Shown here: positions 22,920 to 22,980 of the stretch, piece after piece
Numbering within the stretch: position 1 is the first letter of the stretch
Layout: the number at the start of each line of letters is the position of its first letter
Sequence record: PQ666539
From: Shigella phage sb1
Length of the DNA stretch: 64,000 nt
Reading direction: 5' to 3' (one strand)
Translations under genes and position numbers: made by a program
The notes under the pieces: generated by a model
Told to the model about the DNA's origin: nothing
Database searches by the model: none
The model's input: only the letters and a program-made list of their open reading frames with translations

Positions 22920-22949
22920 TTTGTGTTCCTCATGTTATGTCAGTAAGAT

Positions 22950-22980
22950 TATTATAACACAACACGAGGGACTTGTAAAC
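22950..22980 (-). promoter_or_regulatory. early promoter (GTTTACA -35, TATAAT -10) upstream of alt.-3
   Basis: minus strand GTTTACAAGTCCCTCGTGTTGTGTTATAAT. Confidence 0.65.

Follow-up and report, generated by a model that had tools for sequence, protein, structure and literature searches.

A repeat search of the window analysed here, a stretch of 64,000 nucleotides from Shigella phage sb1 (PQ666539), a Tequatrovirus, identified a 54-nt sequence that is present twice, in minus-strand sense, at 22927-22980 and 38660-38713. The two copies are identical at 51 of 54 positions (94%) and are separated, start to start, by 15,733 nt. Copy 1 is positioned between the stop codon of alt.-2 and the start codon of alt.-3, copy 2 between the stop codon of rnlA and the start codon of alc. 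The genes and the elements assigned to the two cassettes are as follows.

22641..22919, minus strand: alt.-3, an ORF of 92 aa (Pfam DUF5498), predicted to be driven by copy 1
22927..22980, minus strand: cassette copy 1, upstream of alt.-3, from the repeat search; sense GTTTACAAGTCCCTCGTGTTGTGTTATAATAATCTTACTGACATAACATGAGGA
22927..22940, minus strand: 3' arm of the predicted copy 1 hairpin, leader plus Shine-Dalgarno (SD) sequence (GAGG at 22931-22928), ACATAACATGAGGA
22944, minus strand: predicted +1 of copy 1 (A)
22951..22959, minus strand: extended -10 of copy 1, TG-T-TATAAT (TG at 22959-22958, hexamer at 22956-22951)
22957..22971, minus strand: 5' arm of the predicted copy 1 hairpin, anti-SD within the promoter spacer, TCCCTCGTGTTGTGT
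22974..22979, minus strand: -35 hexamer of copy 1, TTTACA, from the promoter scan
22980..25037, minus strand: alt.-2, Alt paralogue, co-directional, upstream of copy 1; one in-frame TAG at 24506-24504
38149..38655, minus strand: alc, predicted to be driven by copy 2; two in-frame TAG here, at 38439-38437 and 38253-38251
38660..38713, minus strand: cassette copy 2, upstream of alc, from the repeat search; sense GTTTACAAGTCCCTCGTGTTGTGTTACAGTAGTCTTACTGACATAACATGAGGA
38660..38673, minus strand: 3' arm of the copy 2 hairpin predicted by folding, leader plus SD (GAGG at 38664-38661)
38677, minus strand: predicted +1 of copy 2 (A)
38684..38692, minus strand: extended -10 of copy 2, TG-T-TACAGT (hexamer at 38689-38684)
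38690..38704, minus strand: 5' arm of the copy 2 hairpin predicted by folding, anti-SD within the spacer
38707..38712, minus strand: -35 hexamer of copy 2, TTTACA, from the promoter scan
38720..39844, minus strand: rnlA, co-directional, upstream of copy 2; two in-frame stop codons in the window

An earlier note on this DNA had described near-identical cassettes of ~50 bp ahead of alt.-3 and alc. The pair is confirmed, both gene assignments are right and the match is not due to chance. With up to 3 mismatches allowed, a 26-mer comprising the -35 and spacer, and a 22-mer comprising the leader and SD, each have exactly 2 matches in the 64 kb, with 0.00 expected from 100 shuffles. The start of the note's 50-mer at 22931 in copy 1 stands, but the second 50-mer is located at 38664-38713 rather than at 38667-38716, a displacement of 3 nt, and identity continues for 4 nt more (TCCT on the plus strand), making the repeat 54 nt long. 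Copy 1 occupies the entire alt.-2/alt.-3 intergenic space, its first G (22980) being the final base of the alt.-2 TAG. The same note had named similarity limited to generic promoter consensus positions as the finding that would undo its observation, and this explanation is ruled out: among eight early-promoter-like sites in the window, the cassette pair has 51 of 54 positions in common and all other pairs have 20 to 34 (mean 26.6). When the -35, TG and -10 positions are excluded, the cassettes are still alike at 37 of 38 positions, and any other pair at no more than 21.

The copies differ, on the sense (minus) strand, as TATAATAA versus TACAGTAG. Two of the three differences are at positions 3 and 5 of the -10 hexamer and the third is 2 nt downstream of the hexamer, so that the statement that all three fall exactly within it holds for two only. 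The window shows an excess of G>T/C>A changes. Despite this excess, sequence noise as the origin of the three differences is ruled out because the closest relative, sb2, carries exactly the same two cassette sequences.

In both copies the order of elements is TTTACA, 17 nt, TGn, TATAAT (copy 1) or TACAGT (copy 2), a short leader and GAGGA. The GAGGA is positioned 5-9 nt ahead of an ATG and the cassette reaches from stop codon to start codon; the upstream TAG abuts the -35 in copy 1, and a TAA lies four bases upstream in the case of copy 2. TTTACA-17-TATAAT matches the sigma-70 consensus at 11 of 12 positions and TTTACA-17-TACAGT at 9 of 12, with the TG present in both. Sequences 5' of each -35 are the coding 3' ends of alt.-2 and rnlA and are not common to the copies, the flank being A/T-rich upstream of copy 2 (GAAAAATTATAAAAAATTT) and only partly so upstream of copy 1. 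Both sites have been annotated by another group, based on pattern, as T4 early promoters in the related phage SA21RB. T4 omics data place alc and alt.-3 in the early RNA and early protein classes, rnlA in the early RNA and late protein classes, and alt.-1/alt.-2 in the middle RNA class. The consensus matches, the SA21RB annotation and the early RNA and protein in T4 all support the view, already taken in the earlier note, that a single early-promoter cassette is present here in two copies. We conclude that both are almost certainly early promoters, with start sites predicted from the sequence; a literature search for papers with RNA-seq of T4 transcription start sites returned nothing relevant.

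The cassette is also an inverted repeat, a feature overlooked previously, in which the promoter spacer can base-pair with the leader and SD. Folding of RNA that reads through from upstream is predicted to yield -25.2 kcal/mol at copy 1 (z = -4.8) and -28.9 kcal/mol at copy 2 (z = -3.8). In both copies, the spacer-by-leader duplex alone is predicted at -21 to -22 kcal/mol, with z of ~ -5 to -6 relative to shuffled spacers. The -10 is located in the hairpin loop and the predicted +1 tops the 3' arm. In the minimum free energy structure predicted for upstream-started RNA, the SD is paired at 3-4 of its 4 positions. The SD is predicted to be unpaired with a probability of 0.00-0.01 in RNA that reads through and of 0.47-0.75 in RNA initiated at the predicted +1. 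As G.U pairs favour the fold of the sense strand over that of the antisense strand by 6-9 kcal/mol, the hairpin appears to act as RNA, and a DNA cruciform is disfavoured for Tequatrovirus, this strand asymmetry being uninformative where stems are perfectly Watson-Crick paired. A hairpin surrounds the -10 in only four of the eight early promoters in the window, and the SD is covered only in the two cassette copies; the hairpins around the -10 of the promoters at 35388 and 46584 do not cover the SD. Covariance models from Rfam 15 gave no match overlapping either cassette, even at E ≤ 1.

The spacer and leader sequences of sigma-70 promoters are normally unconstrained. The same hairpin is nevertheless present ahead of alc, assembled from different but covarying sequences, in at least 9 other T4-like lineages, and the spacer-leader duplex reaches at least the stability of -15 kcal/mol in 24 of 29 distinct promoters taken from upstream of alc on T4-like contigs. 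Across 11 sequence families, each spacer pairs with its own leader at an average of -20.5 kcal/mol, versus -10.2 kcal/mol for cross-family combinations, and the own partner is the best in all 11 rows. In a MAFFT alignment, 83% of cells pair, as compared with 68.6% in shuffles (0 of 500 reach the observed value), and both partners have changed in 11 of 14 pairs; controls in which the arms were slid pair at 36-55%. Within Tequatrovirus itself, GBLB0003 has a compensatory C15T plus G50A change. Pattern scans of IMG/VR and metagenomes added few loci, 7 and 9. The cassette hairpin is, we believe, very probably a conserved RNA hairpin. The stem includes the SD in nine of the 11 families, but in the L052/L069 and L058 lineages the conserved hairpin ends 3-5 nt before it. 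Not all lineages thus bury the SD, and the hairpin could have been conserved for some other property. The alc gene of Mosigvirus lacks the long hairpin. The alt.-3 promoters of other genera are of another type, in which the spacer holds a small hairpin of its own and there is no anti-SD, and the second copy in Tequatrovirus may consequently be a mere by-product of conversion.

T4 and about 499 sequenced relatives have both copies directly upstream of alt.-3 and alc. A BLAST search with the 54-mer located 997 places in 499 phage records, essentially two per genome, so the two-copy arrangement is stable, and the occurrence of both copies in essentially every one of these genomes places the duplication before the genus radiated. 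The -10 sequence varies, being TATAGT at both loci in T4, TATAAT at both in G28, and TACAAT and TACAGT in ime09. All three sites that differ in the window are polymorphic at both loci across the relatives (positions 27, 29 and 32 common to both), and one genome has a private G16A change in both copies. Copies within a genome differ at 1.47 positions versus 2.08 between genomes (permutation p = 0.0012), a comparison based on 15 mutually related genomes in which all the shared polymorphisms are transitions that could recur independently. Polymorphisms common to both copies suggest gene conversion, and it is probable, from these sequence patterns, that conversion has homogenised the copies. In Tequatrovirus and Mosigvirus, the alc and alt.-3 loci also appear to have swapped cassette types. 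The differing sites are the least critical positions of the -10 (3 and 5) and the hairpin apex, where near-neutral changes are also expected. With these sites variable at both loci, the adaptive tuning of promoter strength proposed in the earlier note is not shown.

A mechanism can be envisaged in which host sigma-70 RNA polymerase would fire the cassette promoter straight after infection. Transcription would start ~7 nt after the -10 and generate a leader of ~25 nt, bearing GAGGA, followed by the ATG of alt.-3 or alc. As the spacer on the one hand and the leader plus SD on the other are complementary (TCCCTCGTGTTGTGT and ACATAACATGAGGA), RNA reading through from rnlA or alt.-2 would fold into a hairpin of 17-22 bp with the -10 and start site in its loop; the 3' arm would bury the SD and poor translation of the read-through RNA is then to be expected. 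RNA from the cassette's own promoter would lack the 5' arm and its SD would be free. Synthesis of Alc and Alt.-3 would thereby be tied to the brief period of early-promoter activity. The rnlA-alc junction of T4-like phages would be the ancestral site of this hairpin-in-promoter design. An alc-type cassette would have been placed also ahead of alt.-3 in Tequatrovirus, a direction of copying that we infer, and the copies kept similar by selection on promoter and stem plus occasional gene conversion. We lean towards this account as a whole, namely an early promoter with an SD-hiding hairpin, ancestral at alc, copied to alt.-3 and kept alike. For its functional core, sequestration of the SD in read-through RNA and exposure in promoter-started RNA, which derives from folding models, we put the chances at about even. 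A more far-reaching version is possible but tentative. The spacer before alc may have been recruited as an anti-SD, so that promoter and translational insulator are one 54-nt element and Alc is made only from RNA that this promoter starts within the first minutes, never from long middle or late transcripts. The device may then have been copied to alt.-3 by ectopic gene conversion in Tequatrovirus, with the reverse swap in Mosigvirus, the cassettes serving as exchangeable units.

A simpler explanation is that the cassettes are merely two copies of a strong early promoter and leader, with a hairpin that has no role at the RNA level and an identity that results from fairly recent duplication or conversion together with promoter and ribosome-binding constraints. 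It accommodates the clear promoter elements, the early expression of both genes in T4, the shared polymorphisms that suggest homogenised copies and the alt.-3 genes of other genera without an anti-SD. It does not readily accommodate spacers and leaders that covary over 11 lineages while their sequences change, the compensatory double change in GBLB0003 inside the genus, or a duplication older than the genus radiation, and we consider it unlikely. Were the stem-loop to act on transcription or RNA stability, as a PeSL-type attenuator or terminator or as a protective 3' hairpin for rnlA and alt.-2 transcripts, the isolation would be transcriptional and not translational. One PeSL stem-loop reportedly terminated in a reporter assay (PeSL literature), and such a role would fit both the L052/L069 and L058 hairpins and those at 35388 and 46584, none of which covers the SD. 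There is, however, no U-tract after the hairpin in any lineage, the 3' flank being A-rich; the flanks of the two stems in the window, CUUUAUGAUG and ACACAAAAUG, have no U-run, and neither cassette is among the 18 terminator-like sites located by a terminator scan of the window. A Rho-independent terminator is rejected on these sequence criteria. The 3' arm is, moreover, exactly the SD in 9 of 11 families, which is not required of a terminator, and action on transcription or stability is rather unlikely. The hairpin might also couple translation, if a ribosome ending at the upstream stop codon melts the 5' arm and frees the SD, so that alc and alt.-3 on long RNAs are translated only when the upstream gene is. 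In most lineages, 6-13 nt separate the upstream stop from the first base of the stem, and in many TAG is fused directly to TTTACA. Ribosome geometry dictates, however, that a terminating ribosome would reach just ~0-3 bp into a helix of 15-20 bp, and with a gap of ~12 nt almost none of the T4 alc stem would be opened; this coupling we find scarcely credible.

There remains the proposal that the cassette is mainly a portable recombination module, 54-bp direct repeats that drive deletion, circle formation or gene shuffling as in the PeSL mini-circle model. A passage in Arbiol 2010, citing Singer 1982, states that T4 recombination needs merely small (<50 bp) patches of homology, mini-circles have been detected in RB49 and phi1 (PeSL literature), and the apparent exchange of cassette types between alc and alt.-3 in Tequatrovirus and Mosigvirus is as expected of such a module. 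The earlier note had likewise suggested that the repeats could delete the 15.7-kb interval as an accessory region. That interval includes the DNA ligase gene 30 and the co-chaperonin gene 31. Both genes are essential in T4, and a deletion product would therefore not be viable on its own; with essentially all 499 records also in the two-copy state (997 copies), the suggestion fails. The search for deletion variants in related genomes, also proposed there, yields a sole candidate, PP500713.1 (152,184 bp), the only record without the interval. As this record starts and ends with the exact same 54-mer, it looks like an assembly break at the repeat, of the type given by a k=55 graph, and not a natural deletion. 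G28 has a third copy, which results from a perfect tandem duplication of 351 bp that includes the end of rnlA, the cassette and the start of alc, and its interpretation as a cassette-mediated event is rejected. Overall, a primary role in recombination is very improbable. For genome assembly the repeat does matter, since assemblies of T4-like genomes from short reads can break or be closed wrongly at an exact repeat of 54 bp, and one deposited 'complete genome' has apparently lost 15.7 kb in this way.

If the cassette is an early promoter with an SD-hiding hairpin, this would explain the base-for-base conservation of the spacer and leader of two T4 promoters in about 500 genomes, which exceeds the needs of promoter function alone. 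The logic of a promoter inside a hairpin that hides the ribosome-binding site, known from the late genes e, soc, 49 and I-TevI, would be extended to an immediate-early gene, with the opposite temporal outcome and with a second job for a sigma-70 promoter spacer. It would also account, in a way that can be tested, for the sharply limited early period in which Alc, which shuts off host transcription, is made. As a compact natural element that combines a promoter and a read-through insulator within 54 bp, the cassette might also be useful in synthetic biology.

The cassettes resemble T4 early (Pe) promoters, defined as UP/-35/TGn/-10 promoters in the Hinton review, in having a GTTTAC-type -35, a 17-nt spacer, TGn and a TAnnnT -10 directly ahead of early genes; recognition by unmodified host sigma-70 polymerase is counted as a further likeness. 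They differ in that ordinary early promoters in the window are alike at consensus positions only (20-34 of 54), whereas the cassettes share 51 of 54, including the whole spacer and leader, and have no upstream UP-element sequence in common. PeSL cassettes have the same order of early promoter, stem-loop overlapping the -10, and SD plus ATG at the 3' end, are also intergenic and repeated within a genome, and have a T4/PST consensus, TTTACW-N17-TAYWAT, that fits both copies. In both copies studied here the -10 lies within the predicted hairpin (-21 to -29 kcal/mol, z of -3.8 to -4.8), and the cassette fills the intergenic space with the SD and start codon at its 3' end. PeSLs are described as a terminator or attenuator plus promoter, and their authors (Arbiol 2010; Comeau 2014) interpret such stem-loops in that way and not as translational devices; the cassettes have no U-tract, are absent from the terminator scan and have the SD itself as 3' arm. 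PeSLs are clustered in hyperplastic regions beside ORFans and indels, whereas the cassettes are two per genome, stable in 499 records and 15.7 kb apart around a block with the essential genes 30 and 31. The cassette-type swaps between the alc and alt.-3 loci across genera are the sole hint of mobility. Neither alc nor alt.-3 is named in the PeSL papers (Arbiol 2010; Comeau 2014). Conserved early-promoter elements that flank the T-even internal-protein (IP) loci (Repoila 1994, as cited in Arbiol 2010) are, according to that citation, likewise repeated and T4-early-promoter based, and were proposed to mediate gene shuffling; they are at other loci with highly variable gene content, whereas the cassette interval is conserved.

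Pyrimidine-rich anti-SD motifs in bacterial sigma-54 promoters are reported to reduce downstream expression from read-through transcripts (bioRxiv 10.1101/086108). These are similarly promoter-encoded and act against read-through expression, but they belong to another, bacterial promoter class and, as described there, are short and CT-rich rather than long covarying helices enclosing the -10. For the complementarity of spacer to SD reported here we found no precedent and it is apparently new, the older subscription literature (Miller 2003; Liebig & Rueger 1989) lying outside this comparison. The closest functional parallel is with T4 e, soc, 49 and I-TevI, where long upstream transcripts bury the SD and/or AUG, and RNA from an internal promoter lacks the 5' arm and is translated. 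In the cassettes, by prediction, the SD is paired in upstream-started RNA and RNA from the internal promoter, given the start sites assigned above, lacks the 5' arm. The internal promoter of e, soc, 49 and I-TevI is late (TATAAATA) and delays expression until late, whereas that of the cassettes is an early sigma-70 promoter whose 17-nt spacer doubles as anti-SD, so that expression would stay confined to the early period. With an internal promoter of this type, the cassettes would work like the e/soc/49/I-TevI family without being members as described. They are nearest to the PeSL cassettes and to the promoter-in-hairpin scheme of T4 e and soc, and we regard them as a modified form of a design already known from T4, not as an element of a new kind.

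A repeat search of the window identified one 54-nt family with two copies, 15,733 nt apart and identical at 51 of 54 positions:

22927-22980, minus strand: copy 1, before alt.-3; sense strand GTTTACAAGTCCCTCGTGTTGTGT-TATAAT-AATC-TTACTGACATAACATGAGGA
38660-38713, minus strand: copy 2, before alc; sense strand GTTTACAAGTCCCTCGTGTTGTGT-TACAGT-AGTC-TTACTGACATAACATGAGGA

Both invariant halves occur exactly twice in the window at ≤3 mismatches (chance expectation 0.00). The 50-mer repeat described in the earlier note was correctly placed for copy 1, but its second copy occupies 38664-38713, 3 nt lower than reported there. 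Two of the three differences do fall in the -10 hexamer (positions 3 and 5), whereas the third, also assigned to the hexamer, is 2 nt downstream. The similarity is not confined to generic promoter consensus: the pair shares 51/54 positions, versus 20-34/54 for the other pairings among 8 early-promoter-like sites in the window, and outside the consensus positions the pair is identical at 37/38 and any other pair of these sites at ≤21/38. Reading the two as a duplicated early-promoter cassette was right.

Based on megablast, the region belongs to Tequatrovirus, the genus of T4-like coliphages and Shigella phages, with Shigella phage sb2 the top match across 22 kb (96.7% identity), and T4 gene order is kept. 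In order of transcription, the minus-strand genes are nrdA, nrdB, denA, rnlA, [copy 2], alc, pseT.3-pseT, cd, 31, rIII, 30.x, 30, alt.1, alt, alt.-2, [copy 1] and alt.-3, beyond which are a bidirectional terminator and then the convergent gene 54. This strong terminator-like hairpin (22603-22624) has 9 bp, six of them G-C pairs, and T-runs on both strands. A sub-threshold Rfam match to the Rhizobiales sRNA Atu_C8 (31733-31816, minus strand; 31.4 bits, gathering score 50, E = 0.006) overlaps the terminator-like hairpin 31747-31768, and this hairpin probably gave rise to it by chance. The alt.-2 and alt genes are full-length paralogues of 685 aa each (23094-25040 and 25185-27098), with blocks 70-94% identical at a spacing of ~2055 nt; in T4, alt.-2 is mostly deleted, the remnants being alt.-1 and alt.-2, with the deletion endpoint ~20 nt upstream of the cassette and outside it. 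A tandem pair of 288-nt units, 76% identical, at 10966-11541 is positioned in hoc by offset from the ime09 annotation, and presumably encodes repeated Ig-like domains. In-frame stops are present in genes that are intact in relatives, one in alt.-2 (24504-24506), two in alc (38437-38439, 38251-38253) and two in rnlA (39446-39448, 39293-39295). Compared with phage sb2, each of the five arises from G>T on the sense strand (GAG>TAG three times, GGA>TGA and GAA>TAA), and over 22 kb of the window there are 65 C>A and 66 G>T versus 21 A>C and 31 T>G substitutions, with a control phage pair symmetric. The pattern resembles error (oxidative damage or sequencing) or mutagenesis, and not real pseudogenes. 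A TAA, apparently in frame, inside a repeat unit near 52.7 kb (52666-52736) seems to be of this kind too.

By sequence, both cassette copies are predicted T4 early promoters. Each has TTTACA, 17 nt, TG-n and a hexamer; copy 1 agrees with the sigma-70 consensus at 11 of 12 positions and copy 2 at 9 of 12. This layout is in line with a review by Hinton, in which T4 early promoters are described as UP/-35/TGn/-10 promoters, and with the T4/PST consensus TTTACW-N17-TAYWAT of promoter-early stem-loop (PeSL) cassettes (Arbiol 2010; Comeau 2014). Both sites carry pattern-based T4-type early promoter labels in the independent annotation of phage SA21RB, which at comparable intergenic sites elsewhere in the region has overlapping 'promoter' and 'terminator' features. 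The cassette occupies all of the intergenic space; the last base of the alt.-2 stop codon is the G of GTTTAC in copy 1, and GAGGA is 9 nt from the alt.-3 ATG and 5 or 8 nt from two candidate alc ATGs. In the published T4 time course, alc and alt.-3 give early RNA and early protein, whereas the upstream genes differ, with early RNA but late protein for rnlA and middle RNA for alt.-1/alt.-2.

What is added here is a conserved, covarying hairpin that joins the promoter spacer to the Shine-Dalgarno sequence (SD). In the Tequatrovirus cassette the two arms are TCC(C)TCGTGTTGTGT and ACATAACATGAGGA, whose helix contains a single bulged C and two G.U pairs. Read-through RNA is predicted to fold at -25.2 kcal/mol (z = -4.8) in copy 1, and in copy 2 at -28.9 kcal/mol (z = -3.8). 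Sense-strand folds of this cassette are 6-9 kcal/mol more stable than those of the antisense strand, favouring structure at the RNA level. At the rnlA-alc junction of other genera the layout is the same, arm 1 in the promoter spacer and arm 2 consisting of leader plus SD, with different sequences:

Arms of the alc-upstream hairpin
Kagamiyamavirus: TCCTCATTTTGTTG ... CAACAAAATGAGGA
Jiaodavirus: TCCTCATCAG ... CTGATGAGGA
Karamvirus: TCTCCATTTGGTT ... AACCAAATGGAGA
Dhakavirus: TCTCCTCAT ... ATGAGGAGA

Forty alc loci fetched from IMG/VR yielded 29 different upstream sequences conforming to the promoter pattern, 24 of them with a spacer-leader duplex of ≤ -15 kcal/mol. Among 11 sequence families, a spacer paired with its own leader averages -20.5 kcal/mol versus -10.2 across families, the own partner being best in 11/11 rows. 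On a MAFFT alignment of 13 sequences, 83% of helix cells pair, a value that none of 500 column shuffles attains (68.6%), both sides have changed in 11 of 14 helix pairs and slid controls pair at 36-55%; a 2-nt register shift of the Tequatrovirus row makes these covariation counts conservative. The SD is within the stem in 9/11 families, and in the loci L052/L069 and L058 the stem stops 3-5 nt short of it. There is no U-tract 3' of the stem, neither site is listed by a terminator scan of the window, and neither cassette matches an Rfam family.

In the predicted structure, the -10 hexamer would be in the hairpin loop and transcription would start ~7 nt beyond it (A at 22944, A at 38677), at the top of the 3' arm. 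RNA from rnlA or alt.-2, with no terminator between in the scan, would carry both arms, and RNA initiated at the cassette promoter would retain only the 3' arm, leaving the SD freer. The SD is predicted to be unpaired with a probability of 0.00-0.01 in read-through RNA and of 0.47-0.75 in RNA from the cassette's own predicted start. With the SD buried in the former and freer in the latter, we propose that the cassette may link alc translation to transcripts begun at its own immediate-early promoter, likewise alt.-3 translation in Tequatrovirus, and so could shield both from middle and late read-through. We infer these steps from structure to translational effect from the modelled folds.

The two hexamers were suggested in the earlier note to tune promoter strength. 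There is a trade-off: in the same context, TATAAT has a 6/6 match and -22.8 kcal/mol and TACAGT a 4/6 match and -25.7 kcal/mol, a better -10 versus a slightly stronger apical stem, with the SD-burying stem the same in all alleles. Adaptive tuning is possible but not indicated, as the variable sites are exactly those under weakest constraint. Deletion of the intervening 15.7 kb as an accessory region was wrong in its premise, as this interval contains gene 30 (DNA ligase) and gene 31 (co-chaperonin), both essential in T4. Exchange between the copies is physically plausible, as their 54-bp length is about the minimum homology for T4 homologous recombination given by Arbiol 2010, citing Singer 1982. 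The only record found to lack the interval is PP500713.1 (L011 and L012 among the fetched loci), a 152,184-bp deposit presented as a complete genome, in which the entire 15.7-kb alc-to-alt.-2 block is absent, DNA ligase and gene 31 included. It starts with the cassette and then alt.-3 and ends with rnlA and then the same exact 54-mer, the pattern expected from a de Bruijn split at the repeat with the 15.7-kb contig discarded; the apparent deletion is thus most likely an assembly break.

Queried by BLAST, the 54-mer has 997 matching places, each with ≥90% identity, among 499 phage records, which amounts to essentially two copies in every genome throughout the genus. T4 has both, with TATAGT in each and one leader base apart. 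Only G28 (NC_054916.1; locus L013, 1484-2186) has three: the final 150 nt of rnlA, the cassette and alc's first ~200 nt are repeated in tandem as a perfect 351-bp duplication, the extra alc ORF being truncated. The duplication may be real or an assembly artefact, and was not cassette-mediated. The alt.-3 promoter of Dhakavirus, Mosigvirus, Karamvirus and Kagamiyamavirus is also early but of another kind, without an anti-SD: its small hairpin, for example ACACCA-AGGA-TGGTGT, consists of a 5-6 bp stem wholly within the 17-nt spacer and a loop containing GGA, and the stem sequences covary between genera. Such hairpins are upstream of alt.-3 in loci L028, L029, L030, L031 and L034, and of alc in L026, L057, L071 and L073. 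The simplest reading is that in Tequatrovirus this cassette was replaced by the alc type. The opposite replacement seems to have happened in Mosigvirus G2285, whose alc promoter is of the alt.-3 type, with a spacer almost identical to that of Dhakavirus alt.-3.

Within-genome gapped identity of the two cassettes
Tequatrovirus: 51/54
Mosigvirus: 43/54
Karamvirus: 42/54
Dhakavirus: 38/52
Kagamiyamavirus: 33/52

The evidence for cassette exchange between the alc and alt.-3 loci also adds value. The -35, the stem arms and the SD are nearly invariant across 15 Tequatrovirus genomes, and the common polymorphisms, at positions 27, 29 and 32 (-10 positions 3 and 5, and the loop), are common to both loci, as are the haplotypes TATAATAATC, TATAGTAATC and TATAGTAGTC. 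Copies differ at 1.47 positions within a genome versus 2.08 across genomes (permutation p = 0.0012), and a private G16A is present in both copies of GBLB0003 only, with compensatory C15T and G50A added in its alt.-3 copy. Recurrent mutation may have generated the alleles shared by both loci, as all shared changes are transitions and the sample is small and of related genomes. The shared polymorphisms together with the within-genome likeness point, in this small sample, to occasional ectopic gene conversion atop purifying selection.

Architecturally, the cassettes are of the PeSL type (Arbiol 2010; Comeau 2014), though these papers mention neither alc and alt.-3 nor translation. Unlike PeSLs as described, they do not belong to an ORFan-rich hyperplastic cluster, lack a U-tract of the terminator kind and have the SD as their 3' arm. 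PeSL-like hairpins also occur at two further early-promoter-like sites on the minus strand of the window, roughly at 35330-35388 (-17.7 kcal/mol) and 46530-46584 (-15.9 kcal/mol), folding around the -10 hexamer and leaving the SD uncovered. In T4 genes e, soc, 49 and I-TevI, a late promoter within an RBS-hiding hairpin is established, and the predicted structure of the cassettes follows the same logic, but they lack the late promoter that defines this family and have an early one, whose spacer also serves as the anti-SD. Conceptually similar is the promoter-encoded anti-SD 'insulation' reported for bacterial sigma-54 promoters (bioRxiv 10.1101/086108).
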